Shown: positions 13,149 to 30,216 of the stretch, one piece after another | Numbering within the stretch: position 1 is the first letter of the stretch | Layout of the letters: each line of letters starts with the position of its first letter | Source: Candidatus Saccharimonadota bacterium | GTDB taxonomy: Bacteria; Patescibacteriota; Patescibacteriia; 2-12-FULL-60-25 | Length of the DNA: 32,000 nucleotides | Assembly: GCA_016699205.1 (NCBI GenBank) | Contig: CP064964.1 | Location: forward strand, 1,050,255-1,082,254 | Reading direction: 5' to 3' | Program-made: the position numbers and the translations under genes | Notes under the pieces: model-generated | The model's database searches: none | Told to the model about the DNA's origin: nothing | What the model saw: only the letters and a program-made list of their open reading frames with translations

Positions 13149-13924
13149 ATGATTCCCTATTTTGAACTGACTTCGTTTCCTATTCTTGGCGTGACATTCC
13201 AGACATGGGGAACGATTGTTGCCTTGGGGTATGCGCTTGGTACTTATGTTGCTTGGAGACGGGCTAAAGAGAAGGGTCTTGATCCTGAGCGGATTTTGGA
13301 TCTGGCTTTTGGATTTTCATCGGGGCGTTTTTAGGGGCGCGTATTTTTCATGTGGTGTTTTATGATCCGATGCATTATCTGGATCAGCCGCTTGATGCAT
13401 TGGATCCGCGTAAGCCTGGATTTGCGATGTTTGGCGGGCTGCTCGGTGCAGCCGGTGTATTTTTCTATTACTGCCGATCGCGCGCGATTAGTTGGATTGC
13501 GTATGCTGATACACTGGTTTGGGGATTGCCGTGGGGCTGCGGGGTCGGTCGCATTGGTTGCTTTTTGATTCATGATCATCCCGGGACGCTTACGCATTCG
13601 TTTCTGGGCGTAAAATATCCGGATGGCCAGACGCGTCATGATCACGGTTTGTATTTGTCGATTATCGGTTTTGTAACAGGCTTTTTGTTTCTTTGGTTGA
13701 ATCGCAAACAGCGACGTCCGGGTTTCTGGTTCGGTAGCTATATGGTGATCGAGGGTATTACGCGTTTTGGATTGGATTTTTGGCGTATTGTCGACAAGAC
13801 ATACTTGGGATTAACGCCAACGCAGTATGTGGCGATACCGATGATCGGGTTGGGCTTGTGGTTGATTCTTCGGAATACCTCACCCTCGGTCCCTCTCATT
13901 CGTAAGGAGAGGGAGGTCGTGTGA
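13149..13924 (+). CDS. lgt: Prolipoprotein diacylglyceryl transferase Lgt (apparent 1-nt frameshift in T-run 13307-13310)
   Basis: ORF 13110-13334 (real start MIPYFEL at 13149) and ORF 13352-13924 are the two halves of Lgt. The second frame is already open upstream and reads WIFIGAFLGARIFHVVFYDP. One extra T in cttttgg would give LDLAFWIFIGAFLGARIF. The GRIGCFL motif is present. Confidence 0.85.
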
Positions 13925-13936
13925 TAGAATGTCGGC

Positions 13937-14851
13937 ATGTTTGATTGCATCGTGATTGGTGGAGGACCGGCTGGAATGGCGGCGTCTGTCTATCTTGCGC
14001 GTCAAAAAATGAACTTTGCGATGTTCGCCGGAAATCTCGGCGGACAGGTGATTTGGTCGTCGGATGTCGAGAATTATTTAGGTATCCACCAGATTAGCGG
14101 TATCAAGCTGGTTGAGGCATTTGATAAACATTTGGAAGATTATCGTGAGGCGATGGAATTGCATGAGGGGGAGAAGGTAAAGCGCGTGACGAAAACCAAG
14201 GGCGGTTTTTCCGTTGAGACAGAGCGCGGCGCTTATCCGACAAGAACCGTTTTGATTGCGACCGGTGCCGATCATCGCAAGCTTGGCGTTCCAGGAGAGG
14301 ATGAATATACAATGAAAGGTATTTCGTATTGCGCGACATGCGATGCGCCTTTATTTGCCAACAAGGTCGTACATATTGTTGGTGGAGGGAATAGCGCTAT
14401 GGATGCAGCGTTGTTTGCCGCTAAGTACGCGAAAGAAGTTCACTTGGTAACGATCAATGCCGAGCTTATGGGCGATGAGGTTATGAAGCAGCGTTGTTTA
14501 TCGCAGGCTAATGTTCAGGTGCATGTTTCAACCAAGACGGTCGGATTTGCGGGTAAGGCGATGTTGGAATCAATTATTTTAGCTGGAGCTGATGGAAAAG
14601 AGCGGGAAGTGCCTACGGAAGGTGTTTTCATTGAAATTGGTCTTATGCCGCAGTCAGAGATGATCGACTTTGCGGCAAAGGATAAGTCGGGGCAGATTAT
14701 TATCGATTCCCACAACCGCACGAATGTTGACGGGGTTTGGGCGGCCGGAGATGTTACTTCCGTGGCCTTTAAACAGATCGCGGTTGCGGTCGGAGAGGGG
14801 TCAAAGGCGGCTCTTGATATCATTCGTTACCTTCAATCTACGCAGGCTTGA
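13937..14851 (+). CDS. trxB: Thioredoxin-reductase-like flavoprotein (CATC redox motif; NADPH-specifying HRRxxxR motif absent)
   Basis: IVIGGGPAGMAAS (FAD), SYCATCDAPLF (redox-active CxxC), VGGGNSAMDAALF, AAGDV. Where E. coli TrxR has HLIHRRDGFRA, this protein has HLVTINAELMG. Confidence 0.8.
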   Translation: MFDCIVIGGGPAGMAASVYLARQKMNFAMFAGNLGGQVIWSSDVENYLGIHQISGIKLVEAFDKHLEDYREAMELHEGEKVKRVTKTKGGFSVETERGAYPTRTVLIATGADHRKLGVPGEDEYTMKGISYCATCDAPLFANKVVHIVGGGNSAMDAALFAAKYAKEVHLVTINAELMGDEVMKQRCLSQANVQVHVSTKTVGFAGKAMLESIILAGADGKEREVPTEGVFIEIGLMPQSEMIDFAAKDKSGQIIIDSHNRTNVDGVWAAGDVTSVAFKQIAVAVGEGSKAALDIIRYLQSTQA

Positions 14852-14916
14852 CAATAGAGCTGAAATTCTATGGCTGGCGTTGCGTAGTAAGGGTTGTCAT
14901 GCCATTCTTTTAACCT

Positions 14917-15561
14917 ATGCAAGATGCTTCCAACAAGAATTTATTGATCGGTGTTGCTGTAGTTGCGGTGCTCGTTTTTGGAGGGTTGGTGTGGGCGATT
15001 ATGTCGGCTCCGACATCTGCCCCGCTAGCCAATGGTGAACTCATTTTTGATGACGTGAACGATCCGTTCATCGGACCTGAGAATGCTACGACGGTCGTCC
15101 GTCTGTACAGTGATTTCCAGTGTCCCGCGTGTCGAGCGGCCGAGGGTGGAGTCAATTACGCTATCGAAAAATACAAGGACAAGATCAAATTTGTCTGGAA
15201 AGATTTTCCTCTCATGACGATACACCCGAATGCGCGTCTTGCGGCCAATGCCGGACGATGCGCACAGGACCAAGGTAAGTTTTGGGAGATGAAGTCCAAG
15301 CTCTATGACGGACAGTCTAGCTGGGACTCGAGCCGCGACCCTTCAGCGGACTTTAGAGCTTACGCCTTACAGATCGGATTAAATGTCGATCAATTCAATA
15401 CCTGTCTTGATAGCCGGGCGAATGATGCAAAAGTCATGGCCGCTTACCAAGAAGGCGTACGGAACAATGTCGATCGGACGCCTACGACGTTTGTTGGCAC
15501 GGAACGCTTGTTTAGCCTGACGCCGACCGAATGGGATCAAGCACTTGCCAATAAGCCGTAA
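14917..15561 (+). CDS. Membrane-anchored DsbA-family thioredoxin-domain protein (CPAC)
   Basis: N-terminal TM helix (LLIGVAVVAVLVFGGLVWAIM), then YSDFQCPACR and the DsbA-like helical insert. The C-terminal part has the TPTTFV cis-Pro region. Confidence 0.8.
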   Translation: MQDASNKNLLIGVAVVAVLVFGGLVWAIMSAPTSAPLANGELIFDDVNDPFIGPENATTVVRLYSDFQCPACRAAEGGVNYAIEKYKDKIKFVWKDFPLMTIHPNARLAANAGRCAQDQGKFWEMKSKLYDGQSSWDSSRDPSADFRAYALQIGLNVDQFNTCLDSRANDAKVMAAYQEGVRNNVDRTPTTFVGTERLFSLTPTEWDQALANKP

Positions 15562-15606
15562 ATAGATAGACGGCCCCTTTCATAACTGCTATTCTTCTAC
15601 AAATTT

Positions 15607-16338
15607 ATGTCTCAAAACTTTTTTGACGGCGGTCCAAAAACAATGTTCTTTACCGGGCTTTTTCTCGGAATCGCCGTGTCGGCGGTTGTCGGGTTAGGGG
15701 TGACGTTGAATCTTGTCATGGGTGGTAACGCTTTAGCTGTCGGCGGTAATTCCGGTGCGTATGTTCCTCCGAGCGGAGCGCAGGCTCCGGCTGCTCAGGC
15801 TCCCGTCGCTGCTGGACCGTTGAAGCCAGTGAGTGCCAACGATCATCTTTTGGGGCCTAAGAACGCAAAGGTTACCTTGGTTGAGTACTCGGATTTCCAG
15901 TGTCCGTTCTGCTCACGTCATCTCCCGACAGTGAAACAAGCGCTGAAGGATTTTCCGAACGAAGTAAACTTGGTTTATCGCCACTACCCGCTTTCCTTTC
16001 ATCCGGAAGCTCAGAAGTCAGCTGAAGCTTCGGAATGTGCAGCTAAACTCGGCGGCAACGATGCTTTCTGGAAGATGCATGATGAATTGTTCACGAATCA
16101 AGCAACTCTTAGCCGATCTCTTTATACCGAGCTTGCCAAGAAAATTGGTTTGAACACGGTTAATTTTGACAAGTGTCTCGATGGAGGTGAAATGGCAGCC
16201 AAGGTCAATACGGATTTGCAAGATGGTACAACGGCAGGTGTTGAAGGTACGCCGGCAACCTTTGTTAACGGTCAGCTTATTTCTGGCGCTGTACCGTACA
16301 GCGAGTTGAAAGCTGCTATCCAGGCTGCTCTTAAATAA
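15607..16338 (+). CDS. Membrane-anchored DsbA-family thioredoxin-domain protein (CPFC), paralogue of 14917-15561
   Basis: N-terminal TM helix, an Ala/Pro-rich linker, YSDFQCPFCSRH, and the GTPATFVNG cis-Pro region. Confidence 0.8.
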   Translation: MSQNFFDGGPKTMFFTGLFLGIAVSAVVGLGVTLNLVMGGNALAVGGNSGAYVPPSGAQAPAAQAPVAAGPLKPVSANDHLLGPKNAKVTLVEYSDFQCPFCSRHLPTVKQALKDFPNEVNLVYRHYPLSFHPEAQKSAEASECAAKLGGNDAFWKMHDELFTNQATLSRSLYTELAKKIGLNTVNFDKCLDGGEMAAKVNTDLQDGTTAGVEGTPATFVNGQLISGAVPYSELKAAIQAALK

Positions 16339-16348
16339 GACCTCATAA

Positions 16349-16382
16349 TAAAAAAATTCCTCCGGCCGGAGGAATTTTTTTA
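16349..16382. terminator. Bidirectional Rho-independent terminator (perfect palindrome)
   Basis: aaaaaaattcctccgg/ccggaggaattttttt lies between the convergent DsbA-like and ZIP genes. Confidence 0.85.
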
Positions 16383-17159
16383 TTATTCGAGCCCTGCCGT
16401 GAGATACATGATGGCGAGACCGAGGAACATCGCCAGTGTTTGCCAGGCACGCGTGCTAAGTTTTGGCTCCTCTTTAATTTCTGCAAACAAGTTTGTGCAA
16501 GCCATGTAGATCATGAATCCGGCGGCAAGCGGGATCGTCCACGTTGTCAGACGTGTCACAAATCCGGCGGCAAACCATGTTCCGACAACGCCTGCAATCA
16601 TGGCCAAGGAAACCAGCAAGTTAAGCCAGAGCGCTTTCTTTTTGGAAAATCCAGAAGAAAGGAGTATGCCAAAATCGCCGAGCTCTTGTGGAATTTCGTG
16701 TAAACCGATCGCGACGGCGGTATTAAAGCCGAGCGTAGGATTCACAAGAAATGCCGACATGACGGTAATGCCGTCTGTAAAATTGTGTACGGCGTCTCCG
16801 ATGAGATTCAGATAGCCGACCGGTTTTGCGGGAGTGTGATCATGTTCGTGATCGTGTAGTTCACGGCCTGCGTGGCTGTGATAAATCCAGAGCATGGAAT
16901 CGAGGACAAAGAAGAGCAGGATGCCTGCTAATGCCCAAGTCAGTGCGTTAGGGGACGCTTCAATCGATTCAGGTAGGAGATGAAAGAACGCATTTCCGAG
17001 GAGCGCGCCGGCAGCAAAAGCGACAACAGCATGCTGAATAAACGCGGTCTGGCTCTTTTTCCACGCGAGACTGGCGTAACCCAGTAACGATAGAAGGCTC
17101 ATGATGATGGCGGCTGATAAAGCTGGTAGCAGGGTTTCCATATGTGGATAACCTAGCAT
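16383..17159 (-). CDS. zupT: ZIP-family divalent metal (zinc) transporter, ZupT-like
   Basis: Polytopic membrane protein with the His-rich loop HSHAGRELHDHEHDH and the ZIP signature GLHEIPQELGDFGILL. An alternative start is ATG 17141 (METLLPA). Confidence 0.85.
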   Translation of the reverse strand: MLGYPHMETLLPALSAAIIMSLLSLLGYASLAWKKSQTAFIQHAVVAFAAGALLGNAFFHLLPESIEASPNALTWALAGILLFFVLDSMLWIYHSHAGRELHDHEHDHTPAKPVGYLNLIGDAVHNFTDGITVMSAFLVNPTLGFNTAVAIGLHEIPQELGDFGILLSSGFSKKKALWLNLLVSLAMIAGVVGTWFAAGFVTRLTTWTIPLAAGFMIYMACTNLFAEIKEEPKLSTRAWQTLAMFLGLAIMYLTAGLE

Positions 17160-17165
17160 AGGTCC

Positions 17166-17194
17166 TTGACAAATGCAACTCTGTTGCGTTAAAT
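17166..17194 (+). promoter_or_regulatory. Promoter TTGACA-N17-TTAAAT with a GCAAC-N3-GTTGC dyad in the spacer (candidate Fur/Zur operator); -10 ends 6 nt before the fur ATG
   Basis: TTGACA at 17166-17171, TTAAAT at 17189-17194, ATG at 17201. The dyad aaatgcaactctgttgcgtta is centred near 17181 in the ZIP-fur divergent region. Confidence 0.5.
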
Positions 17195-17200
17195 AGGTTC

Positions 17201-17593
17201 ATGCAAGAACGCCAAACCAAGTCCAAGCTCGCCATACGGGAGGTCCTGTCAGCTTCTCAGAAGCCGATGGCGGCTATGGAATTGGTTGAGGCTTTAGGAG
17301 GGCGCGGTTTATCGGTTAATAAAACGACGGTTTATCGAGAGCTTGAGAAATTGCTTTTGAAAGGCGAGATTTCGGAGGTTGATTTTGCAGATGGTCAGAA
17401 GCGTTACGAGATGACGCATGGCGATCATCACCACCACGCGGTTTGTATGAGCTGTGAAGCGGTTGTCGAGCTTGAGATTGAGCCGCAATTGGAACAGATT
17501 CAGTCCTCGGTAGCCAAGCAGAGCGGGTTTCGTATTCAGAAGCATTTGGTTGAGTTTTTTGGGATGTGCGGATCCTGTTCTAAAACCGTATGA
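17201..17593 (+). CDS. Fur-family metalloregulator (probable Zur, by context)
   Basis: 130 aa. Winged-helix N-terminus (NKTTVYRELEKLLLKGEISEV), then HGDHHHHAVCMSCEAV and a C-terminal CGSC, which are the Fur-family metal sites. It is divergent from the ZIP transporter. Confidence 0.85.
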   Translation: MQERQTKSKLAIREVLSASQKPMAAMELVEALGGRGLSVNKTTVYRELEKLLLKGEISEVDFADGQKRYEMTHGDHHHHAVCMSCEAVVELEIEPQLEQIQSSVAKQSGFRIQKHLVEFFGMCGSCSKTV

Positions 17594-18549
17594 AGATTGC
17601 ATTTGTCGGAAAAGGCGGAAGCGGGAAGACGACGATGTCGTCATTGTTCTGCCGACATCTTGCTTCCCATGGCAAGACGGTTTTAGCGATCGACGCCGAT
17701 ATTAATCAGCATCTTGCCGGGGCTCTTGGTGTTCCATCTGACCAAGCTGCCGCGATTCCTGCGATGGGAAATCTCTTAACCGAGATTAAAGATTATTTGC
17801 GCGGGACAAATCCATTGATTGGCTCTGCTTCACAAATGGTCAAAACAACGCCGCCAGGGAATGGATCCCGGCTATTGCGTTTGAGTACGGTCGAGGCTTT
17901 TTTTGATCGTTTCGCCATCAAGCATGAAGGTATGCGTGTGTTGGCGACTGGCGGATTTCAGGAAGAAGATTTGGGCGTCAAATGTTTTCATGCCAAAACC
18001 GGTGCAGCAGAATTGGTGCTGAATCATTTGGTTGATCGCAAGGATGAGTTTGTGATCGTCGACATGACGGCTGGCGCTGACGCATTTGCATCGGGTCTTT
18101 TTACCAAGTTTGATCTTACGCTGATTGTCGTGGAGCCGACCCTGGCCTCCGTAAGCGTTTATCGACAATACAAAGGCTACGCTTCCGAGTTTGGCGTTCC
18201 ATTGGCGGTCATTGGAAACAAAGTCGTCGACTCGGAGGAGGAGGCGTTTTTACGAGAACAAGTGGGGGATGATTTGCTCGCCATTATTCCGTATTCAAAA
18301 GCGGTGAAAGCGCGTGATCGCGGAGATGCAACAGCTGCTGACGCGGATCGTGAATTACTGGCAGCGTTCCATGTCCTTGAAGAGCGTTTGCAGCAGACGC
18401 AAAAAGACTGGAACCGTTTTTATCGTCATGCGGTTGAATTTCACCTGCGAAATGCCAAGAGTTGGGCAAATGCGAGTACGGGTATTGATCTCGCAACACA
18501 GATCGATCCGGACTTTGGTCCAGAGAACTTTGTCGCCGCATCAACTTGA
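17590..18549 (+). CDS. CooC/MinD-class P-loop ATPase (deviant Walker A), possible metallochaperone
   Basis: The start overlaps the fur stop (ATGA). MKIAFVGKGGSGKTTMSS (KGGxGKT) and AIDADINQHLAGALG match the CooC-like DADPxxNL. GVKCFHAKTG sits where CooC has CxC. VIVDMTAGADAF is Walker B. Confidence 0.7.
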   Translation: MKIAFVGKGGSGKTTMSSLFCRHLASHGKTVLAIDADINQHLAGALGVPSDQAAAIPAMGNLLTEIKDYLRGTNPLIGSASQMVKTTPPGNGSRLLRLSTVEAFFDRFAIKHEGMRVLATGGFQEEDLGVKCFHAKTGAAELVLNHLVDRKDEFVIVDMTAGADAFASGLFTKFDLTLIVVEPTLASVSVYRQYKGYASEFGVPLAVIGNKVVDSEEEAFLREQVGDDLLAIIPYSKAVKARDRGDATAADADRELLAAFHVLEERLQQTQKDWNRFYRHAVEFHLRNAKSWANASTGIDLATQIDPDFGPENFVAAST

Positions 18550-18644
18550 TCGTATCCGGCCCTTTTGTCACGCGAAAGCGTGGCTGAAGGGTCGGACGCG
18601 ATCGCGCTTATGCGACGCGAGGCCGACACCTCAAAGGGGGTTCC

Positions 18645-19412
18645 ATGTCCCTGTCTGTTCCTTTCGAGATCACCGAGCGCATCAAGGGTGCCACGGACGA
18701 GATCGTCGATCACGACACGTTCGTGAGCATCTGTAAGACGTCCTTGCCCGGCGCCGTGAAGATGTACGAGCTCATGTGCGAGCGCCTCAAGAGCGAGCCG
18801 AGCGGCTCGTATCGCAAGTGCTTTCACGGCTTCACCGATGTCGAGCGCGGCCATGTCATCCGCGCCTGCTACGGTGATGCGATCAATCGCGAGCTGAATC
18901 TCCACTACGGCATCGTGCTCGTGCGGACGGCATCCGGACGCGTGGTCGGCTTCACGCCCGAGTCATTCTCGCGCGAGGACTTCCGTTCCCGCGTCTTCAA
19001 CCTCTCTGCGCAGAAGGCACATGGCGACGATCCGGTGGAGACGTCGGCGATCATCGACCACGCGGACACGCTGCGCGAGATCGAGCGGCTCTACCCGCTC
19101 GCCTACGCCTGCATCGCATCGCACGAGGGTCGTTCGTTCAACCACCGTGCTACCGAGCAGCCGCTCTTTGGGCAGCTGGTCGAGATGATCTCCATCCGTC
19201 CGTACCGCTTCCTGCTCGAGGATGCGTTCGGTCCGATCGCCACGGTCAACTGCTGCAAGCAGGCGGGACGCGGCAAGAAGGGCAAGGAGAAGTCCAAGGA
19301 CGAGAATACGCCGTCCAAGCCCAGCGACACGCTGGGCGAGCTGTCCTGGGACTTCATCGTGAGCCGGACGCATCAGCTCCAGATGCAGGAACCGGCGATG
19401 TTCGACTGCTGA
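18645..19412 (+). CDS. Hypothetical protein A (255 aa) of the GC-rich island; distant paralogue of 19555-20316
   Basis: The SD AAGGGGG lies upstream and the codons are strongly C/G-ending. A strong terminator follows. Lys-rich linker GRGKKGKEKSKDE near the C-terminus. No family recognised. Confidence 0.65.
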   Translation: MSLSVPFEITERIKGATDEIVDHDTFVSICKTSLPGAVKMYELMCERLKSEPSGSYRKCFHGFTDVERGHVIRACYGDAINRELNLHYGIVLVRTASGRVVGFTPESFSREDFRSRVFNLSAQKAHGDDPVETSAIIDHADTLREIERLYPLAYACIASHEGRSFNHRATEQPLFGQLVEMISIRPYRFLLEDAFGPIATVNCCKQAGRGKKGKEKSKDENTPSKPSDTLGELSWDFIVSRTHQLQMQEPAMFDC

Positions 19413-19436
19413 TCAGTCCGCCTAGCGGACTTCCTC

Positions 19437-19476
19437 GCCGACCCACCCGTAGAAGCCGGGTGGGTCGGCTTTTCTT
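19437..19476 (+). terminator. Rho-independent terminator after island ORF A
   Basis: 13-bp perfect stem gccgacccacccg (19437-19449) / cgggtgggtcggc (19457-19469), a 7-nt loop, then ttttctt. Confidence 0.8.
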
Positions 19477-19554
19477 ATCGTCTGGACAAGGGCGAAAGCT
19501 CGGCGTAGCGTTAATCCTTGTCGCCGGCTCTTGACTGGCGATAACGAGGCAAAC

Positions 19555-20316
19555 ATGCACATTCCGAGTGTGTCACCTGAGCTTGCTGAAAGCGTTCGCG
19601 TCAATGGTGCGATCAATGATCAGGAGTTTGGAGGCCTTATCCTGCACTGGTTTCCGGCGGCTTGGACGCTGTGTTTTACGCTCAGGCGTCAGACACATCC
19701 GAGGCCCGTGTCAGACAGACGCGAGGAGGATGAGACCGTGCCGGTGAGGCTCTTGAATGCTCTTCTGCATAAGTCCGAGCATCATAGCCCGCGGCCGGTT
19801 GAACCGATGATCAGACGGGTCTCGATTCCCGAGATGGTCGGTATCAAGGCTGTGTCCCAGGTGTACCAAGTCATGGCCAGCGATGCGATGCATCGATGCG
19901 CACAAACCGTTCATGAGGGAATGTTCCGACTGGAGTCGGAAGAGATCCTCGTGATGATTCCTGAAGGTCTCAAGGCTCCTCCGATCGAGCTTCCTCCTCT
20001 TGCTTTCATTGAGGAGCGCTATCATCTTGCCTGCGACCAGATCCGCATCGTCCTCGCGGACATGGAGGATTCAGACCGAGGGTACGGTCTTCTCGACTGT
20101 TCCAAGGCGCCGCGCAGTCTCGAACAGCTCGTGATGCTGATGGCGATTTATCCGTATCGTATGCGCATCGAGCGCGAGTACGGCGTTGAGCTGGCCTATC
20201 AGTGGCCGGGTATCCTCGCTGCCGCACCAGCTGGTACGAGAGGCCGTCTGCGCGAGTTCCGATCTGCCGCCGAGCAGATCCTCGCGATCCATCGCAATCC
20301 CAAGAGCACCGTCTGA
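19555..20316 (+). CDS. Hypothetical protein B (253 aa) of the GC-rich island; distant paralogue of 18645-19412
   Basis: I prefer ATG 19555 (GAGG 6 nt upstream) over the listed TTG 19531. It shares colinear motifs with ORF A (see findings). The start is uncertain because the N-terminal ~90 aa are Pro/Arg-rich. Confidence 0.6.
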   Translation: MHIPSVSPELAESVRVNGAINDQEFGGLILHWFPAAWTLCFTLRRQTHPRPVSDRREEDETVPVRLLNALLHKSEHHSPRPVEPMIRRVSIPEMVGIKAVSQVYQVMASDAMHRCAQTVHEGMFRLESEEILVMIPEGLKAPPIELPPLAFIEERYHLACDQIRIVLADMEDSDRGYGLLDCSKAPRSLEQLVMLMAIYPYRMRIEREYGVELAYQWPGILAAAPAGTRGRLREFRSAAEQILAIHRNPKSTV

Positions 20317-20322
20317 ACGATA

Positions 20323-20356
20323 AGAGCCCCGTCATGTATTCTGCTGACGGGGCTCT
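20323..20356 (+). terminator. GC-rich hairpin after island ORF B (terminator-like, poor U-tract)
   Basis: 12-bp perfect stem agagccccgtca (20323-20334) / tgacggggctct (20345-20356) with a 10-nt loop. It is followed by gatgttat. Confidence 0.5.
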
Positions 20357-20466
20357 GATGTTATCCAAAATGGAATACAGTATCCGGACTTATTGCGTAC
20401 GCTTGACGTATCCGACTGAATATAGTAAGCCTAAAAAGCGTTGCATCGTGGAAAGGATAGGTCGGT

Positions 20467-20661
20467 ATGTTTTCATCGTGGAGAGACGGTATGCCTTCAT
20501 CGCGTGAAGAAGGGGAAGGCGAGTCAGACAAGAGGGTTCTCTACGACAGCGCTGTCGAGCTGAATCCCAGTTCCAACTACACGACGGTCATCGAGGAAGA
20601 GCCGGACGGCCGTATCTTGATCCATGACCGGACAAAGTCGGGGAGCGGGCATTCCGCATGA
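20467..20661 (+). CDS. Small acidic hypothetical ORF (64 aa), island-associated
   Basis: GGATAGG lies upstream of the ATG. The stop overlaps the next ATG (ATGA at 20658-20661). It may fuse with the next ORF if the A-run 20634-20636 is one base short. Confidence 0.35.
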   Translation: MFSSWRDGMPSSREEGEGESDKRVLYDSAVELNPSSNYTTVIEEEPDGRILIHDRTKSGSGHSA

Positions 20662-20726
20662 GCAAGCTCGAGTTTCAGCAGCTGCTCGCTCATGCCCCGA
20701 ACATTCTCAACAAGCTCAACAGGTAG
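20658..20726 (+). CDS. 22-aa ORF (MSKLEFQQLLAHAPNILNKLNR), possibly the C-terminus of the preceding ORF
   Basis: Its frame is open upstream to 20625 (PDKVGERAFRMSKLEF...). A terminator follows at 20764-20800. Confidence 0.25.
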   Translation: MSKLEFQQLLAHAPNILNKLNR

Positions 20727-20763
20727 TTCAAGACGGGTCGGTTGGTACCTTTGTTTTTACGAG

Positions 20764-20800
20764 CCCCGTCCCGCAGCTGCGGAATGGGGTTTTTTGTTTT
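20764..20800 (+). terminator. Rho-independent terminator closing the GC-rich island
   Basis: Hairpin ccccgtcccgcag/ctgcggaatgggg (20764-20789; one mismatch and one G-T pair), followed by tttttgtttt. Confidence 0.75.
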
Positions 20801-20806
20801 GGTCTA

Positions 20807-21366
20807 TTACGATGAGAGCAGGATAATGCTGGCGGTAATGCCGTAAATCAGAACGCTTAGCGTATCTTGAATGACGGTGGCAATTGGTCCTGCGCCGACG
20901 GCTGGGTCGAGGTGCTCCATTTGGACAAGTTTTGTGACGATAAGCGCTGTATGCGGCGCGATGGCAACGGCGATGAACATGGATATACCAACAACCATCG
21001 CAAGCATGGAGTCTTGGAACCAGATATATGCCGCGATACCGCTCAGTATGCCAGATATCGATCCAAGTATTATTCCGACGCCTGCTTCTTTCAGAAGGTA
21101 ATTTTTGAATTTTGCTTTACGTGATCGGAGGTCGCGGCTAAAGATGCTTTGTGTTTGTGAACCCACGGCTGCGGCAATATAGACGACGAATGGAACAAAG
21201 AAGGCGATGCGAATGTCTTTGGCCAGCACGTCTTCAAAGGTAGAAAAGACAACGGCCAAGACAACGCCAAGAAATAGACCGACTAGAATGGATGGTAAGC
21301 GAAGACGAACAAGTTTTTTACCGACTCGGTATCGTCGTCGGCGTAGATGATGCGTTTCCAGCTCAT
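20807..21366 (-). CDS. MgtE-type divalent cation transporter, membrane domain only (apparent 1-nt frameshift in homopolymer 21314-21319)
   Basis: ORF 20807-21259 carries MgtE TM-domain motifs (PFVVYIAAAVGSQTQSI, DPAVGAGPIATVIQDTLSVLIY). Its frame stays open upstream with no ATG. ATG 21366 (MSWKRIIYADDDTESVK) is one frame off. One extra A in gtaaaaaac joins them as ..SVKKLVRLRLPSILVGLF.. Confidence 0.7.
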
Positions 21367-21367
21367 A

Positions 21368-22374
21368 TTAATCTCCTGTCATCTGTTTCTTTAGAAGCGT
21401 CACATTTGGAACCGGCCAAGGATCGATCTTGTGACGTCTGGCCAAGGCGACGCTTGTCGAGGCTCCCAGGGCAATAGCGGTCCACGCTTCTTGCAGACGG
21501 TTTTTGCCGATCACATCGATGGTGATGGCACGAATGCCGTTTTTCTGCAGGATTTCTGCCGTTAGCTTGATGCGTTTGTGATTGCGCGGATGATAATGCT
21601 CGGATTGAAAGAGAACAGCGACGAGCTGTTTTTTGACGGAGTGGGGAAATGTAATACCTTCCAAAAAATGATGGTCGAGTTCTGGAATCACTTGTGCTGC
21701 GGAAAGCTGTTTTCCATTTTCGTTTATTTGATTATTGAATACATGCGCCGCGCCAACGAGATGCTCGGCCGACATGAGTAAGACAAAAGATTTTTCCAGA
21801 TGTCGAGCAAGATCAAAAGCCAAGCCCTGATCCTGGTTTTCAATAAGCTTCGCGACTTCATTGATTTTCCGTTCATCGATTTTTATGATTCCGGTTTTGG
21901 CGAGGATTCCGGCGATGCCAATCGTCATATAGCCGATGGCCATGCGCGGTTGATTGGAGGGATTCTCAACGGGATCGATCACGAGTGTTGGGAATTTGTG
22001 TTTTTGGCTAGCGCAAGTAACTCGCCGCCATTGGTCATGACGATGATGCGGGCTTTGCGGCGGATGGCTTCACGGGCTGCGGAAAGCGTCTCTTCTGTTG
22101 TGCCGGAATAGCTAGAAAGAATGACGAGCGTGTCGCGGCCTACGTGGCTCGGGAGACGATAGTCATTGCTGATTTCAAAAGGGATTGAGATCTCATCACG
22201 GAAGACGGACTGAATCACATGCGCGCCCAAGGTTGATCCGCCCATGCCAGAGACAACGATAGAAGCCGGCTTGTGATGACTTGTAGGAATGTTAAGGCTT
22301 GAGACTTGGCGCCAGGCATCGCGTAGCTGCGCGCCGAGACGCAAATCGTCGGATAAAAGAATAGGAGCCTTCAT
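21368..22374 (-). CDS. Bifunctional phosphoglucose/phosphomannose isomerase (SIS domain; apparent 1-nt frameshift at T5 run 22001-22005)
   Basis: ORF 21979-22416 (real start MKAPILL at 22374) has SGMGGSTLGA and LSSYSGTTEETL. ORF 21368-21982 is the C-terminal PGI/PMI half. One extra A in gccaaaaacac gives ELLALAKKHKFPTLVIDPVENPS. Confidence 0.8.
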
Positions 22375-22385
22375 GGCTCCTATTC
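22351..22385 (-). terminator. Terminator hairpin of the DUF1761 gene that also contains the SD and start codon of the PGI/PMI gene
   Basis: On the minus strand: gaataggagcc (stem) atgaa (loop) ggctcctattc (stem), then ttttatcc. The ATG at 22374 is in the loop and AGGAG is in the 5' arm. Confidence 0.6.
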
Positions 22386-22406
22386 TAGCACAAATAATTA
22401 GATTTT

Positions 22407-22832
22407 TTAGCGCCAAACAGCGAGGATCACTCCCATGATGATGAGTGAGACCAAGCGGTATCCGGTGTTGATGAAGTAGAGCTTCCAGGGTTTATTGCCC
22501 CAGAGCTGCTCATCCATTTGCACAGGCGCAAAAAATCCGAGCCAGGTCCAGAAACCAGACATGACGCCGCCGACCCAACCAAATGTCTGCGTATAGGTCA
22601 TCGCAAATTCTGTTGTAAATGATAGGACGTAGGCTAAAACAAGCGAACCAATGCTCATCAGGGCATAGGTCTTATTCATGCCTTTCATCGCCTCCTTGCT
22701 CATTTTGGATGGATCAATACCCATTAGTTTCATCCAAGGTTTGCCAAATAAAGGGCCGTACCAAAGGAACCCGAGAACGACGGTGGAAATGGCGGCGACG
22801 AGTATAGCGAGGTAGTTGGGGGTAAAAGTCAT
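22407..22832 (-). CDS. DUF1761-family membrane protein
   Basis: 141 aa, four predicted TM helices. LGFLWYGPLFGKPWMKLMG at the N-terminus is typical of DUF1761. Confidence 0.75.
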   Translation of the reverse strand: MTFTPNYLAILVAAISTVVLGFLWYGPLFGKPWMKLMGIDPSKMSKEAMKGMNKTYALMSIGSLVLAYVLSFTTEFAMTYTQTFGWVGGVMSGFWTWLGFFAPVQMDEQLWGNKPWKLYFINTGYRLVSLIIMGVILAVWR

Positions 22833-22847
22833 ATGGACAGCATTCTA

Positions 22848-24575
22848 TCAGCTTTTACGTTTTCCGTGCATCAACATGTCGACAGCTTTGTCGAGTGTAC
22901 CGGCAGCCGTCAGTTCGCCGTTGTTTACAAAGAAGATGCCGTCAGCTTTTTCGATCGTGTTCAAGCGATGGGCGATGATGACCTTTGTTGTCGATCCTGG
23001 AAGCTGATCGAGGGCTTCTTGGAGCAATTGCTCCGTGACGGTATCGATGTTGGCGGTGGCTTCATCGAGAATCAGGAGTTCTGGCTTGCGCAAGACGGCA
23101 CGCATGAAAGCGATGAGCTGCTTTTGACCCAAGCTGATGGAGTCGGCGCCGGAGACGGGCGTGTCGACGCCTTTTTCAAAGCGGGCGAGGAGACGCTCAA
23201 GGCCCATCGAGTTGATCGTGTCGATTTTTCTTGGTGGCTTGCTGCGGCAAAATCAGGATTGGCGTAGAAGATGTTTTCCAGGACGGTGCCCGTGAACAAG
23301 AATGGTTCTTGCAAGATGAAGCCGATTTTTTGGTGCGATCGCTTTCAGGGTAGGAGCGCAGATCGCGGCCATCGAGCAGGATGGTGCCGGAGGTTGGATC
23401 GTAGAGACGCGCCATGAGCGAGGCAGTTGTGGTTTTGCCGCCGCCTGTCGGACCGACGAGTGCGTAGGTTTTGCCGCGTTCCAAATCGATGTTGATGTTG
23501 CGCAAGACATCCGGACGCTCTGGATAGCCAAAGTGTACGCCTTGGAATTGTACAAGGGCTGGATTGGCGGCCTTTTCGCCTTCAATCGTCGGCAAGTCCA
23601 TTGTTTCATCCATGATTTCGAGACGCGATCCCAGGCGGCTAATGCGAGCTGGAAGGAGTTCCAGAGCATGGCGATTTGGCGGAGCGGACCGTAGAAGCGC
23701 TCGACATAGATCAAGAAACTCAAGAGTAAGCCAAGCGTAAGGCTTTGTTGGGAGACGAGCAGGATGCCGTAGCCGAGAACGATCAGAATCGCCAAGTTGG
23801 AGAAAAGATCGTAAATCGGGGAGTAGAGGGCGCTGGCGATGCCGGCGCGTGTTGCTGCTTTGAAGTTGATTTTGTTGGCGATGGCAAAGCGGTCGCGGAA
23901 GAAGTCGCGGCGATCAAATGCGACAACGACTTTAAAGTGTTCCAAGCTTTCTTGAATTTCTGCGCTCAAACCGCCGGTTGCACGCAAACTTTCTGCATTG
24001 CGCTTTTAACCCAGCCGGAAGTGGCTTGCGTAAAGAGATAGAGTGCTCCGGCCGGGACTAGCGCGGCGAGGCCAAGATGCCAGTTCAATGAGAGCAGGAA
24101 GATACCGGAACCGACAATCATCACGATGCTCATCGTGAAACGCACCAAGGTTTCGAGAAGAATTGGTTGAGTTTGTCCGTGTCGTTGTTGATGCGGGAAA
24201 TCAAATCGCCAGCTTTATTTCGGTTGAAGAAGGCGATTGGTAGCGATTGAGTTTGGCAAAATCATGTTGCGCAAACGGAAGAGCATGCGCTGACCTACAC
24301 GGCCCATGAGCTGCATCTGCCAATAGCTTGTGCCGAGGGCGATCAAGAATGCGACGAGAAGCGCTGCGACGGTTGTAAAGATGCCTGGATAGTTTGCGGT
24401 GCGTACATAAGCATCGATGGCGTGACCAAAATGTAAGGCACGCTCAAGTTGATGCCGGAAGCGATGAAGATCGTAAGCGCCGTCAATGCCAAAGGACCAA
24501 TCTCCGGTTTGAGATAGGGGAGAAGCTTGCGGACACCGACGAGCGCGGATGTCTTTTTGCGGGCTTATCGTTCAT
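22848..24575 (-). pseudogene. ABC exporter (fused permease + ATPase), disrupted by at least 9 single-base frame disruptions
   Basis: Fragments 22848-23207, 23072-23314, 23197-23613, 23253-23987, 23966-24148 and unlisted pieces up to ATG 24575 can be stitched into one about 575-aa ABCB-type protein (MNDKPAKKTSALVGVRKLLPYLKPEIG ... GPTGGGKTT ... ISLGQKQ ... LLILDEATA ... IIAHRL). Shift sites (+ coordinates): 24554-24558, ~24426, 24258-24261, ~24240, ~24152, ~24001, ~23620, 23326-23331, 23225-23229. Confidence 0.85.
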
Positions 24576-26300
24576 ATTGGTTGGTGCTGCGCTGGGAATT
24601 GTAGATCTGGACGTATTCCGGAGAGATTTCCATCAATTTGTCGTGCGTGCCTTGAGCCAAGACCTCGCCCTCCATCAAAAAGGATGATGTGGTCGTAATC
24701 GCGGACAGAAGAGATTTTGCGTGACCGAGACAAGTGTGACGCTTGGATAGTTTTTGCGGACATTCTCGAGAATGCGGTGTTCCGTGTTGGAATCGACGCG
24801 GGCGGTGAAGTCATCGAGCAAGAGGATTTTTGGTTTGATAGCGAGAGCTCGTGCGAGCATCAAGCGCTGCTTTTGTCCGCCAGAGAGACTTGTCCCGCGT
24901 TCCGAGACGAGGGTGTCGAGACCGTTGGGGAGTGTATCGAGGAAATCTTTGAGTTCTGCGGTTTCAATCGCTAAGTCAAAATCTTCTTTGGCCACCTCAC
25001 GACCAAAGGCGATGTTTTCACGAACGGTTAAATTGAAGACGATGCTGTCTTGGAAGACCATGCCGATTTGCGAGTGCAGGCTGCGGCTATCGTATTCTGA
25101 GACGGATTTACCATCGTACAGAACTTCGCCGGAAGTTGGCGGCGTGAGTCCGGTGAGGACATTGAGGAGCTGGGTTTTTCCAGCAGCTGTCGGACCGAGG
25201 ATGGCGGTACGGGTTTTGGCCGGAAGGGAGAAACTGACATGCTTCAAGACAGGCGTTTCGCCAAAACGGATGTTGACGTCGCGCATCTCGATATGGCCGT
25301 CGATCGCTGCTTTCCATTCACCGTCGTTCTTGATTTCCGGAGCATCGAGCACTTCTGCGATACGGATATAGGAGGCGTTTGAGCGGGCCATCATGTTGCT
25401 CATAAAGCCGAGCATCAGCATCGGGAAGATGAGAATGCCGACATAGCTATTGAAGGCGGCGAGCTGGCCAATCGTCATTTCTCCCACGATCACAAAATGT
25501 CCGCCAAGACCAAGGATGACGAGTGTCGCAAGGCTGGAGATAAAGGTAATGAGCGGGATCAGGCTTGCAAAGACGCGCAAAATTTTGAGACCGTTTTCTT
25601 TCGCGTCCGTATTCACGACGAGAAATTTTTCCGTTTCCGATTGCTGGCCATGCAGAACGCGAATCAAGGTCGCGCCCAGAATACTTTCATTTATGGTTTT
25701 GTTCAGACGATCGATGATCATCTGCGATGCTCCAAACAATGCGCCGACTTTGGAGAAGATTCCGTAGAACATGAAGCCCATGATCGGAATGATAAGAAGA
25801 ACGGTTAAGCCAAGCTTCCAATCTGTGGAAATAAGCATGACGCTCGCACCAATCAAAATGAAAAGCGAAGACACGACAATGACCATGCCTTGCGAGACGA
25901 ACATTTTGATGGCGTCGATGTCGCTTGTGAGATTGGTGAGGAGTTTGGATGCCGTCGTGTTTTGGACAAAGGCAAAGCTTTGGCGGGAGATTTTGGCGGC
26001 CAACTGCTCGCGCAAATCGCTCGCGACACGTTCGGATGCAAATGCCTGGATGATGCCGAGGATGTAGTCGGAAATGAGCATCGTGGCACAGATCGCCAAA
26101 AAGGGGAGAGCGATGGCGACAAGGTTAAAACTTCCGCTCGTGTATGCGTCGATTCCGCCGGCAACCATACGGGGCAGCATTAAGCTCAAGCCTTTGCCGA
26201 ATATCGACAGGCCAAGCAAACCGATGATCCAGCCCTTGTATTTAGGGAGGAGGCTCATCAACGTATTTTTCTTTTCAGCAGGAGTCTTCTTGTTGTTCAT
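24565..26300 (-). CDS. ABC exporter (fused permease + ATPase), intact for about 530 aa, with two frame disruptions in the last ~50 codons
   Basis: I prefer ATG 26300 (MNNKKTPAEKKN) over the listed GTG 26321. GPTAAGKTQ (Walker A), LSGGQKQR and LLLDDFTA are present. After VTLVSVTQ the true frame moves to KISSVRDYDHIIL (shift near 24715-24718), then to MEGEVLAQGTHDKLMEISPEYVQIYNSQRSTNQYER* (shift near 24677-24681). The stop is at 24565-24567 and overlaps the next gene's start. Confidence 0.85.
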
Positions 26301-26314
26301 AAATAGGGTTAACT

Positions 26315-26661
26315 TCAGCACTTTCCAAAATATTTTTCGCCCCAGACAGCCATGTGCTTGAGGACGGGGAGCAGGTCTTTTCCTTTTTGGGTCAGATTGT
26401 ATTCCGTACGCGGAGGGACCTCAGAATAGATTGTTTTAGTGATAATGCCGAGTCGTTCCAGGTCGGAGAGCCGGTCGGAGAGGGTGGTTGGATTTACGCC
26501 ACCGGCTTCCGTTTGTAATTCATTGAAACGCAGGGTTTTAGCGAGAGCGCAAATAATAGCCTCGGAGTCCATTTGTCTCCGAGGACGGTTGTAGCAAAGG
26601 CTACGCATTTGGATTTGTTGTCTGATTCTTTGGGCATGATCTTGACGGTTTGGCGATCCAT
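26315..26661 (-). CDS. HxlR-family transcriptional regulator (apparent 1-nt frameshift near 26557-26561)
   Basis: ATG 26661 gives MDRQTVKIMPKESDNKSKCVAFATTVLGDKWTPRL (the HxlR N-terminal C..A...lGdKW motif). The listed ORF 26315-26608 continues IICALAKTLRFNELQ...VPPRTEYNLTQKGKDL. Total length with one added base is 116 codons. Confidence 0.8.
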
Positions 26662-26678
26662 GCTATATTTTTTATAGC
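26662..26678. promoter_or_regulatory. Palindrome GCTATA-N5-TATAGC in the hxlR/nitroreductase divergent region (candidate HxlR operator)
   Basis: gctatattttttatagc lies directly upstream of the hxlR ATG and 40 nt upstream of the nitroreductase ATG. Confidence 0.35.
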
Positions 26679-26717
26679 TAGTCAGTTTTTTTATAGGAAT
26701 TTAAGGACATTGTCAAT

Positions 26718-28765: not shown

Positions 28766-29248
28766 CGATGTAAGCAAAATACTTTCTTAAGAACGCGTTT
28801 GATGCCTCACTTATTGCGTCGAGTGAGATGTTCCAGAAGCCTCCATCGTCTGTGCCATGTGCGATATCTCCTTTATTTCTGAAATCCCATGCCTTTAGCG
28901 CCATGTTTATATCGCTTTTCTGACTTTGAGCAGTTTGCCTGTAAATATCATTCTGTCTTTACTGTTTATAAGATGATCCGAGGTACTCTTTCTTCTATCA
29001 ATGCTGGCACTTATTAGCTCAATACATTTAATAAAGTTTAGGGCAATCTCTAAAGTATTAAAATTGCCAGTATATCTATTTCGAGATGCGATCGTTATGT
29101 ATTTTATGCATCGCCTAAATACCCGATCAGTGCAGGCGAGATAGCGTTTGGATTTTGCAAGAAAGCCATTGGGTAAGTCCTTCGGAAAAAAATTTCTAAC
29201 GTTAATTAATGGTGCTGGTGGGCTTATTCTGATCAAACGTCCCCTCAC
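28758..29248 (-). CDS. Hypothetical protein with C-terminal HEPN-like RNxxxxxH motif (frame disruption between 28909 and 28958)
   Basis: ORF 28907-29248 (GTG start) ends at 28907. A second frame, open from 28958, reads RQNDIYRQTAQSQKSDINMALKAWDFRNKGDIAHGTDDGGFWNISLDAISEASNAFLRKYFAYIDK* and carries FRNKGDIAHG (Rx6H). The region is AT-rich relative to its neighbours. Confidence 0.5.
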
Positions 29249-29264
29249 TTTAAAAAGATTCCTA

Positions 29265-29678
29265 CTATCTCATAATCAAAATAGTTTTGGCGTCGAATAC
29301 GTTTCTTGCCAAGTTGTTGAGTTGTCGTTTTAGGGCGAGGGATAGGGAGGCTATTAGGTCAGTAAAGCGATCTTCTGCTTCTTTGAGAACGAAGTATAAA
29401 TTTTCTTCGCTGATCTCGGTGCTTACAAGGTAGGAAGATTCGAAAGTACGTATTGAAACTGGTTGTTGAGGATAATGTATGAAAGCATCCACGCCCTTAC
29501 TTAAAGAATGGCTAGCGCTTCTTTTTTCAATAATAGGAATCTCTGGCAGATCCCTTTCTAAAAAGGCGGTTGTCTTTTCAATATGACATTCTCCAATCTT
29601 CACTTTTCGCTCAGGTAAAAAATCGCCTAAGATTTTTGCGTAGACGATATATTTTGTTTTTTTTCGCTGCTCACTCAT
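29265..29678 (-). CDS. Hypothetical protein (137 aa), upstream partner of the HEPN-motif gene
   Basis: ATG start, ending in TAG TAG. It is AT-rich with no recognisable motif, and sits 16 nt upstream of the next gene's GTG. Confidence 0.55.
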   Translation of the reverse strand: MSEQRKKTKYIVYAKILGDFLPERKVKIGECHIEKTTAFLERDLPEIPIIEKRSASHSLSKGVDAFIHYPQQPVSIRTFESSYLVSTEISEENLYFVLKEAEDRFTDLIASLSLALKRQLNNLARNVFDAKTILIMR

Positions 29679-29797
29679 AGAATTTTTTCACTTCATCCGT
29701 TATCGCAACAACCATATCTCGATCCAGCTTTTCGCATGTCCAGCAGACCGGCATCGCATGGTTCTGATCCTTCTATATTTTGGATCCCAGAAGCGAT

Positions 29798-30216
29798 TCA
29801 TGTATTACTTTTTCGATCTCTATATTTCTGGACCAAGAATCCAATGAAGGTTCCGATCACATAATACCCAAGAAACAAGATCAGTGTCCTGAAGACAAAA
29901 GAATATCTCAACCGTATTGCGACAATTTGCTTCCCGGTGTCATTACTTGTTTTTCACAACCGTTTTCTTCGGTCCAATAGGTGCAGACCGGAACGGTGTT
30001 GGGACAATATGGTTCCGTGTTAACCATGAATCCGTTCAGTAGAGAATAGCTATGGCCAGTAATGAAAGAAAGATAGATCGTTCCGTTAGTTAAAACGGGA
30101 CTCAGACCGACGCGTGGCGCCGATATAAGAACGATCAAGAAAAACACATAGAGGCTGGCGCATGCCGCTAGCCCCGCGAGTCCGCCTTTGAGCCAAAGTG
30201 ATCCCGACTTTTTCAT
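29798..30216 (-). CDS. Small Cys-rich membrane protein (N-terminal TM, Cys-rich middle; possible C-terminal TM after a frameshift at ~29909-29912)
   Basis: I prefer ATG 30216 (MKKSGSLWLKGGLAGLAACASLYVFFLIVLI), 1 nt after the DUF1428 stop. The Cys-rich segment is EPYCPNTVPVCTYWTEENGCEK. The listed stop is at 29908. The overlapping frame from TTG 29911 to 29798 encodes a TM helix (RYSFVFRTLILFLGYYVIGTFIGFLVQKY). Confidence 0.5.

Follow-up and report, generated by a model that had tools for sequence, protein, structure and literature searches.

Predicted double-length paralogues of the SCO5389 family in a putative metal-homeostasis locus of Patescibacteria

The 32,000-nt stretch of Candidatus Saccharimonadota DNA analyzed here (the whole of it being called the window) contains two neighboring open reading frames (ORFs), ORF A and ORF B, whose base composition differs sharply from that of the surrounding genes and which an original prediction, made from the letters alone, had taken for a foreign island. 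Our analysis indicates that A and B belong to the SCO5389/PF20704 family as paralogues of double length, specific to Patescibacteria, and that, far from being an imported island, they would be ancient members of a metal-homeostasis locus, inherited vertically. Taken together, these claims on identity and history are ones that we hold with high confidence. The explanation that we favor as a whole adds to them a mechanism, in which A would work with the CooC-like ATPase encoded just upstream, and we give it a probability of about 0.6; the metal-handling mechanism considered by itself is more tentative and falls somewhat short of even odds. In what follows, codes from L001 to L105 designate the related loci or contigs that were compared with the window.

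Family, architecture and ATPase neighbor of ORF A and ORF B

Both proteins pass the gathering score (27) of the Pfam family PF20704 (KH_NucS_shadow), ORF A with 52.6 bits over residues 1-115 and ORF B, marginally, with 29.1 bits over residues 187-244. They also match the NCBIfam model NF040488 ('SCO5389 family') with 45.7 and 23.8 bits, respectively, under its equivalog cutoff of 75, and we regard them as divergent relatives and not as equivalogs. Given these matches, the family can no longer be called unknown, as it had been in the original prediction. Comparison with the 130-aa SCO5389 family using hhalign gave a probability of 99.2% (E = 1.5e-19) for ORF A and of 96.7% (E = 3.3e-10) for ORF B, the N-terminal halves of both aligning to the SCO5389 profile. 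When the A and B families were compared with each other, the C-terminal halves aligned (A142-197 with B148-211, probability 86%, E = 4.7e-6); BLASTP of A against B recovered a 20-aa motif only (E = 0.002). The paralogy of A and B and the colinear motifs formerly seen by eye are thus upheld by the profile alignment and by the common fit to the SCO5389 profile.

Canonical members of the family are about 130 aa long in the family-wide alignment and share a MSLxVP start, the motifs SLP, RGQLLR (RGxxxR) and NC[H/C] (Asn-Cys-His), and an end of the form QxxxQxP...[DH]C, with Cys as final residue. ORF A keeps all these invariants (M1-S2-L3-V5, S33-L34, G69, R73, N202-C203, Q244, Q248 and C255): it starts with MSLSVP, displays N202-C203-C204 and ends with ...FDC. 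An insertion of about 125 aa is placed between 'HFGV' and 'LAFQNC' and repeats the central helix-strand unit of the protein (ERGHVIRACYGDAINRELNLHYGIVLVR, then LFGQLVEMISIRPYRFLLEDAFGPIATVNCC). ORF B matches A in length and layout, with an extra 35-45 aa or so within its N-terminal domain, and has lost three hallmarks of the family: its start is MHIPSV, QWPG stands where the family has NC[H/C], and it ends with ...KSTV without the terminal Cys. The insertion of about 55 aa that had been attributed to A must therefore be abandoned: relative to the family, A carries one of about 125 aa and the architecture of B is about as long. Besides C203 and C255, ORF A contains C30, C59, C75 and C204; in ORF B, a single Cys is invariant (C115). 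The true start of ORF B is the ATG at 19555, because the MHxPSV start is kept in 19 homologues.

The AlphaFold2 model of ORF A, obtained from a 22-sequence family alignment, has a pLDDT of 84.7 and a pTM of 0.83, with a disordered Lys/Gly-rich stretch at about residues 205-230 and the last three residues likewise disordered. A sequence search of the PDB with ORF A gave no match. On the basis of a dN/dS well below 1 (from pN and pS) and of this confident model, ORF A is a real protein.

The SCO5389 family comprises 7,234 clusters at 90% identity in a profile search and is present in at least 592 species genomes, mostly from Actinobacteria in both cases. When 1.84 billion representatives were searched exhaustively by profile, the long A type accounted for only about six representative clusters; the long forms (218-271 aa) with a named source all come from Patescibacteria, and a metagenome scan for A-type loci found two only, both resembling L017. 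PF20704 began as the AntiFam entry ANF00096, a supposed shadow ORF of NucS, and was later reinstated in Pfam on the grounds of a confident AlphaFold model, protein-like conservation and expression evidence (PMC9710616). The one expression datum for the family concerns the orthologue from Streptomyces tsukubaensis, which shows a two-fold rise under redox stress (PMC7602649). We also observed that a contig labelled Candidatus Melainabacteria (L036) harbors a 69%-identical SCO5389 gene of actinobacterial type beside ZnuABC, with a G+C content at third codon positions (GC3) of 0.71-0.90 along its whole length; this is suggestive of an actinobacterial contig placed in the wrong bin and not of a member of the cyanobacterial lineage.

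ORF A lies directly downstream of the ATPase gene. The N-terminus of this ATPase (MKIAFVGKGGSGKTT) fits the deviant Walker A motif GKGGxGK[ST] of the MinD/CooC class, and CooC1 (3kje) is its nearest solved relative (E = 1e-15). In the HMMER alignment, the CFH of the ATPase (residues 132-134) is aligned to the C-x-C of CooC1 (CyC), and this C-[FY]-H motif is invariant in 59/59 orthologues from Patescibacteria, Actinobacteria and Ktedonobacteria. The ATPase is 52-59% identical to actinobacterial orthologues that are themselves placed directly upstream of SCO5389 genes, an arrangement found on the same strand and with a gap of 50-90 nt in 36 of the 80 actinobacterial loci. The adjacency is also observed in Ktedonobacteraceae (L105), and in L104 the SCO5389 gene stands beside two ZnuABC-type uptake systems. 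Within 4 kb of the actinobacterial loci, a ZnuA homologue was found in 8/80 and a Fur-family gene in 5/80. The ATPase-SCO5389 pair is conserved across Actinobacteria, Ktedonobacteria and Patescibacteria, and we found no description of it in the literature. Genes for CO dehydrogenase/acetyl-CoA synthase were absent from the window and from the loci fetched.

Composition, synteny and age of the A/B stretch

The G+C content (GC) is 0.60-0.63 at positions 18501-19500 and 0.54-0.56 at 19501-21000, against about 0.50 elsewhere in the window, that is, an excess of 10-13 points over the flanks. With the 38 other ORFs of the window as a reference (mean GC3 0.525, standard deviation 0.064), ORF A is a strong outlier (0.859, z = 5.2) and ORF B a moderate one only (0.645, z = 1.9). 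The first and second codon positions (GC1 and GC2) of both are ordinary, so that the anomaly sits almost wholly at third positions. In ORF A, its level is even from end to end (blocks of 30 codons at 0.80-0.97) and its onset is abrupt past the stop codon of the ATPase gene, whose final blocks are at 0.37-0.45. Every degeneracy class is concerned: G-ending codons make up 0.98 of AAR/GAR/CAR (Lys/Glu/Gln) in ORF A vs 0.49 in the ATPase, C-ending codons 0.75 vs 0.27 of NAY/TTY/TGY, and G+C 0.84 vs 0.57 of four-fold sites, the four-fold boxes of ORF A having G at 0.45 and C at 0.39. The non-coding leader of A and the A-B spacer are GC-rich as well (0.60-0.63). The sharp change of composition and the dominance of C/G-ending codons that had been announced are hence confirmed, strongly for A and moderately for B, and the GC3 of A is clearly apart from that of the other genes of the window.

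The long antisense ORFs that had been read as a side effect of high GC3 are present at 18441-18905, 18963-19373, 19711-20025 and 20006-20368 and occupy the codon-aligned antisense frame. In the case of A, this frame contains 0-1 stops in 8/8 orthologues and is stop-free in 5/8, the interruptions being in the window, L017 and L001. This openness is explained by the shortage of NNA codons in ORF A.

The related contigs all share one backbone, consisting of a ZIP gene (minus strand), fur, the ATPase gene, A, an optional B and, on the minus strand, a cation transporter and PGI. Both A and B follow fur and the ATPase gene in the window, L008, L012, L014 and L017, and A does so by itself in L004 and L007. 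The order is ATPase-A-fur in L001; L015 has fur and B only; in L016, a small ORF stands between fur-ATPase and B; and in L101, fur-ATPase is followed by a 233-aa A-like protein. The succession fur, ATPase, A (then B) occurs in at least eight diverged lineages of Patescibacteria, among which ATPase identity runs from 55% to 98%. B is found in lineages with 41-99% identity, sometimes without A. Because independent assemblies carry the same arrangement, the possibility of a mis-assembly, which had been raised, is excluded.

The history of A can also be read from its silent sites. The pairwise identities of A follow those of the ATPase in broad outline. The raw synonymous divergence pS of A (0.41-0.54) is lower than that of the flanks (0.64-0.82) because a skewed codon set at saturation leaves fewer differences; at identical residues, identical codons are more frequent than saturation predicts by +0.04 to +0.17 in A and by +0.01 to +0.15 in the ATPase. 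Since the silent sites of A are as turned over as those of the ATPase, the bias is old and maintained and a recent import is largely ruled out. The GC3 of A is 0.72-0.89 in all nine lineages examined. Neighboring genes are at 0.40-0.57 in L001, where A is 56% identical and the synteny is different, and at 0.46-0.64 in L101 (about 35% identity); in the GC-richer L004 and L007, A reaches 0.88-0.89 among neighbors at 0.70-0.86. B is not GC3-rich in L015 and L016. In Ktedonobacteria, the SCO5389 gene shows no excess (0.60 vs 0.55-0.67), and the bias therefore belongs to the long forms of Patescibacteria and not to the family. We propose that the G/C-ending codon usage of A is an old feature that is actively maintained.

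Several causes can be considered for this codon usage. The first is translational selection, according to which A would be very highly expressed and written in the optimal codons of the organism. In its favor, NAY codons with a final C are often the optimal ones, the bias covers the whole gene with sharp edges and is kept across lineages, and A possesses a strong Shine-Dalgarno (SD) sequence (AAAGGGGG) and a strong terminator. We nevertheless consider this cause unlikely, since the pattern is a blanket preference for G and C, including within the four-fold boxes, and not a tRNA-matched subset of codons, and since the non-coding leader and spacer are GC-rich too. Moreover, the A protein evolves 4-5 times faster than the ATPase (identity between L008 and L014 is 0.80 for A vs 0.96 for the ATPase), which would be unusual for a top-expressed gene.

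This same acceleration would rather suit GC-biased gene conversion or local recombination, in which A and B would be recombination-prone and fast-evolving and AT-to-GC changes would be preferentially fixed. It would also fit the uneven divergences of the two genes in genomes with equal flank identity (0.81 between the window and L008 vs 0.70 between the window and L014 for A; 0.63 vs 0.80 for B), the extension of the GC enrichment to non-coding spacers and the involvement of all third-position classes. On the other hand, GC1 and GC2 are not raised, B shares the uneven divergences yet is far less GC3-rich, and not at all so in L015 and L016, and a GC3 shift of +0.3 is much above any effect of biased conversion in bacteria known to us. 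One would thus give it slightly less credit than translational selection.

A more speculative idea, which we rate as doubtful, is that the blanket G/C-ending set of A would be a regulatory device under selection instead of a relic of history. The A transcript could be translatable when metal- or sulfur-dependent wobble modifications of tRNAs (s2U34, queuosine) fail, or it could constitute an RNase-resistant mRNA segment between a two-state 5' leader and a strong terminator. By either route, A, as the metal-handling member of a CooC-like C-x-H ATPase system not recognised before, would be produced exactly when metal runs short, B being the counterpart that needs no metal.

The foreign island of the original prediction supposes that A and B were imported jointly and recently from a GC-rich donor, for example an actinobacterium, and have not yet been ameliorated. 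The excess of GC over the flanks, the GC3 of 0.86 in A, the actinobacterial-looking codon usage of a family that is overwhelmingly actinobacterial and the GC-rich leader and A-B spacer are what such an import would leave. However, A occupies the same position behind the same ATPase gene in every related genome that has it, its synonymous sites are near saturation, and B is old too. The adjacent, co-functional ATPase has a host-like GC3 (0.45-0.49) although it is 52-59% identical to actinobacterial orthologues, and the named long forms come from Patescibacteria. In agreement with what had been claimed on mobility genes, no integrase or transposase ORF was found near A/B, nor were flanking repeats, an adjacent tRNA, or a PHROGs or PADLOC match; a phage or defence origin was likewise rejected, since PHROGs and PADLOC returned nothing for A, B or the small ORF described below. 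Compared with compositionally atypical genomic islands, the stretch has their sharp GC/GC3 rise and a codon usage unlike that of the flanks. It differs from them in lacking presence-absence polymorphism, A being at the same site in all A-type lineages and B in many lineages; position and content are kept across deep divergences, and the deviation of A has outlasted a near-saturating synonymous turnover. A recent import thus appears quite improbable. The ATPase+SCO5389 module may, however, have passed between Actinobacteria and Patescibacteria in the distant past.

Finally, that A and B would not be genes and the real feature would lie on the minus strand, as the long antisense ORFs, their openness in most orthologues of A and the AntiFam past of the family might suggest, can be practically dismissed, given that the antisense ORFs have no Pfam match and are broken by stops in three of the loci, that the sense frames show purifying selection, conserved residues at both the start and the end, and whole-codon indels, that the model of A is confident, that SD sites and terminators are sense-oriented, and that all A/T-ending codons are depleted where avoiding three would suffice.

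Operon, regulatory elements and surrounding genes

The features of the locus are collected in Table 1.

Table 1. Position of the genes and regulatory elements of the locus in the window.
Feature	Position	Strand	Remarks
ZIP-family metal importer	16383-17159	-	Pfam Zip, E = 2.7e-43; divergent from fur
fur promoter with embedded putative operator	17166-17200	+	Read from sequence
Fur-family metalloregulator	17201-17593	+	Pfam FUR, E = 1e-23; stop overlaps ATPase start
CooC-like deviant-Walker-A ATPase (GKGGSGKT)	17590-18549	+	Pfam CbiA; best PDB match CooC1 3kje
Leader of A	18550-18644	+	95 nt; P1, mini-hairpin, alternative hairpin, SD
ORF A	18645-19412	+	255-aa expanded SCO5389/PF20704 protein, Cys-bearing, GC3 0.86
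Intrinsic terminator of fur-ATPase-A	19437-19476	+	13-bp stem (19437-19469) and TTTTCTT
Promoter-like element of B	19483-19511	+	TGGACA-17 nt-TAGCGT
5' untranslated region of B	19520-19554	+	Small hairpin TCGCC..GGCGA, GAGG SD
ORF B	19555-20316	+	253-aa Cys-less paralogue of A, GC3 0.65
Hairpin after B	20324-20355	+	11-bp stem, weak T tail
Lineage-specific insertion of about 430 bp	20380-20806	+	Small ORF; terminator 20764-20800 at its end
Short MgtE-type cation channel, transmembrane domain only	20807-21367	-	Pfam MgtE, E = 1.9e-20

The genes fur, ATPase and A form one operon, which runs from the fur promoter to the intrinsic terminator and of which A is the last gene. The read-through of A that had been proposed is supported by the overlap of fur with the ATPase gene, by the absence of a terminator in the 95-nt ATPase-A spacer and by the conservation of the leader; a scan of positions 17000-21400 found no sigma-70 consensus, in line with the claim that no such promoter precedes A. 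The fur promoter is composed of TTGACA (17166-17171), a palindrome (17173-17189) and TTAAAT (17189-17194), with the ATG 6 nt further on. Because this -10 element is just 6 nt before the ATG, the fur mRNA would be leaderless or nearly so. The palindrome (ATGCAAC-TCT-GTTGCGT, general form ATGCAAC-N3-GTTGCRT) occurs exactly once per locus in 20 Patescibacteria loci, always in the fur promoter, and is absent upstream of A or B in these loci; we infer that it is a Fur-family operator. The regulator falls below all the cutoffs of the NCBIfam Fur, PerR and Zur models. Next to fur, the ZIP gene is kept in L008, L012 and L014-L017.

The leader of A contains a P1 hairpin of 23 bp (18550-18601), a mini-hairpin (18602-18615) and the SD sequence (18633-18640), together with an alternative hairpin (18591-18627) that is mutually exclusive with the main fold. 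RNAalifold found 11 compensated pairs in the leader. In seven sequences, 92% of the cells of P1+P2 are paired and 10 pairs show double changes, when none of 500 shuffles was as good and slid controls were paired at 27-47%. The alternative hairpin is 97% paired with 2 compensated pairs, GTCGG/CCGAC covarying with GCCGG/CCGGC. A covariance model of the leader matches upstream of A only, in every A-bearing locus, with 66-110 bits. Rfam, searched at gathering and permissive thresholds with the window and eight related loci, contained nothing relevant; the sX6 match was rejected, being at 29.9 bits below the gathering score of 40 and covering the terminator only. In Actinobacteria, 31 ATPase-SCO5389 spacers yielded no common motif and no match to the covariance model. 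On these data, the leader, whose two folds exclude each other, is a candidate for a new cis-regulatory RNA.

The SD site and the downstream hairpin that had been described for each ORF are in place, with stems of 13 bp after A and 11 bp after B. The terminator of A is kept in L008 and L017, and L014 has a different hairpin and T-run. Ahead of it, right after the stop codon of A, we observed a small perfect hairpin at 19415-19431 (AGTCCGC-CTA-GCGGACT), whose counterpart in L008 is AGTCCGC-TTAT-GCGGACT. The TGGACA-17-TAGCGT element, which by inspection is kept in the window, L008, L014, L016 and L017 and lies under the consensus threshold of our scan, probably drives B. The stem in the 5' untranslated region of B covaries with TCGCGG..CCGCGA in L014 (two sequences only), and the hairpin after B is kept in the window, L012, L008 and L014. 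Another form of B leader was noticed in L008 (8880-8969), L015 (5930-6000) and L016 (5900-6000), namely a conserved GC-rich segment of about 75 nt (GGAGCYRGCGCC...GGCGCCGGTCCTGAAYCGGCGGAGG) without Rfam match, which is possibly a second cis-regulatory RNA; it is absent in the window and L014, where the short covarying hairpin is found instead.

Downstream of B, the only recent, lineage-specific insertion covers about 20380-20806: L011-L013, the closest relatives of the window, have this segment, and it is absent in L008 and L014, where the conserved hairpin of B abuts the stop of mgtE. The small ORF of the insertion is intact in L012 (9823-10083; 86 aa), and in the window the loss of a single nucleotide at 20648 splits it. 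A homologue of 63 aa is encoded in L016 (5624-5815; 39% identity, E = 7e-13); it is Cys-rich (C-H-x3-C-C...C) and sits between the ATPase gene and B, in the place of A. The small ORF has no Pfam, PHROGs or PADLOC match; a likeness to DUF397, seen by eye, was not confirmed by Pfam. The sole repeated feature is GAGCCCCGTC, a 5' arm common to the two hairpins that bracket the insertion.

The MgtE protein is 185-186 aa long in L008 and L012, and its start in the window is obscured by a homopolymer indel at 21313. A form of 331-332 aa with CBS domains is encoded in L004 (6853-7851) and L007, and a P-type cation ATPase takes its slot in L016 and L017. As the transporter varies in kind between lineages, the cation-transporter position is evolutionarily plastic.

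Two further observations concern the window at large. Compared with the 98%-identical L012, it displays 20 single-base indels in 14.3 kb (13306-26692), mostly in T/A homopolymer runs, which split PGI (21368-21982 and 21979-22416, indel at 22000), remove the start of mgtE and break ABC transporter genes at 23224-24714; this pattern is that of long-read homopolymer errors rather than of gene decay. No indel was found at 13307-20647, and fur, the ATPase gene, A and B are therefore unaffected. Besides, the region 28900-30000 has a low GC (0.39-0.40) and bears two minus-strand ORFs (28907-29248 and 29265-29678; GC3 0.35-0.38) with no Pfam match. Its deviation from the genome is opposite in direction to that of the A/B stretch, and recent acquisition is more likely for it than for A and B.

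Possible role of the ATPase and ORF A, and comparison with known systems

We propose that the ATPase and A likely act as a metal-handling accessory pair under the control of the Fur-family regulator. The repressor would control fur-ATPase-A through the palindrome, and probably the divergent ZIP gene too, and would leave its operator when the cognate metal is scarce. The ATPase dimer would then bind a metal ion at its Cys-x-His interface, and an ATP-dependent exchange of this metal, to or from protein A, could take place. Cys203 and the flexible C-terminal Cys255 of A would form the partner ligand site, and A would in turn serve client proteins. Zinc would be the most plausible metal because of the ZIP and ZnuABC neighbors; nickel, iron, manganese or cobalt, or a redox role, would also be possible. 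The leader hairpin would probably uncouple the level of A from that of the ATPase, be it through processing of the RNase III type, through stabilisation of the 5' end or by switching conformation. As for B, which is devoid of the ligands and of the operator, one could imagine a metal-independent variant or adaptor, or an unrelated role.

Several points weigh against this explanation. To our knowledge, ATGCAAC-N3-GTTGCRT does not resemble the classical Fur, Zur or PerR boxes, and no type (Fur, Zur, PerR or Nur) can be assigned to the regulator. Among the actinobacterial loci, 44 of 80 have no ATPase within 4 kb and metal-transporter neighbors are seen in only about 10%. Any link of the SCO5389 family or of the ATPase clade to a metal would be drawn from sequence. 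The expression datum from Streptomyces points to redox as much as to metal, and a Foldseek search of the ORF A model against the PDB found no relative (best E 0.84). The GC3 bias of A is without a demonstrated cause; comparison of the minimum free energy of the mRNA with codon-shuffled controls gave no consistent picture, z lying between -3.8 and +0.1 in A and between -2.0 and +0.7 in the ATPase gene. Finally, since the promoter of B has no operator and B persists in L015, where A and the ATPase are absent, the role of B may be unrelated to the ATPase.

SCO5389/PF20704 is a family of more than 7,000 clusters, uncharacterised and formerly dismissed as a non-gene, and its pairing across phyla with a C-x-H ATPase provides a first concrete, testable functional lead. 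This lead would be a new metal-center or metal-trafficking accessory pair, genetically reachable in Streptomyces. As regards composition, the GC3 of A stays 0.2-0.4 above that of its genome across lineages despite near-saturated synonymous sites, which import followed by amelioration hardly fits. A would thus be a natural test case for selection or biased conversion acting on synonymous composition in very small genomes, and atypical composition by itself is no evidence of recent import.

With regard to known systems, A has every invariant of the SCO5389/PF20704 family and adjoins its typical neighbor, the C-x-H ATPase, and both proteins are above the Pfam gathering score. A and B depart from the family by their length (about 255 vs 130 aa), by the insertion repeating the central unit and by a GC3 excess that is present in mid-GC Patescibacteria and not in Ktedonobacteria; B, without the MSLxVP start, NC[H/C] and terminal Cys, belongs to it by profile score only. 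The ATPase shares with the nickel-insertion ATPases CooC1/CooC a deviant Walker A and a conserved Cys motif at the position of the dimer-interface metal site of CooC1. It is distinguished from them by the variant ligand set C-[FY]-H instead of C-x-C, by a C-terminal extension of about 70 aa and by its conserved partner, which is a SCO5389-family protein and not CooS, CooT or CooJ.

The Cys-bearing A standing beside the Cys-less B also recalls the Cys-plus/Cys-minus pairs of the ribosomal proteins L31, L33 and S14. In these pairs, the classical Cys-less copy is Zur-repressed, whereas no operator precedes B, and zinc binding by A would be conjectural. Another comparison concerns the Zur-regulated COG0523 proteins (ZigA/YeiR/ZNG1). 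Although the NTPase of our locus is from the MinD/CooC branch and not from G3E, and its regulator is not typed as Zur, the two have in common a P-loop NTPase with a Cys/His motif near a Fur-family regulator and the proximity of zinc-type importers, ZIP here and ZnuABC in Ktedonobacteria and some Actinobacteria.

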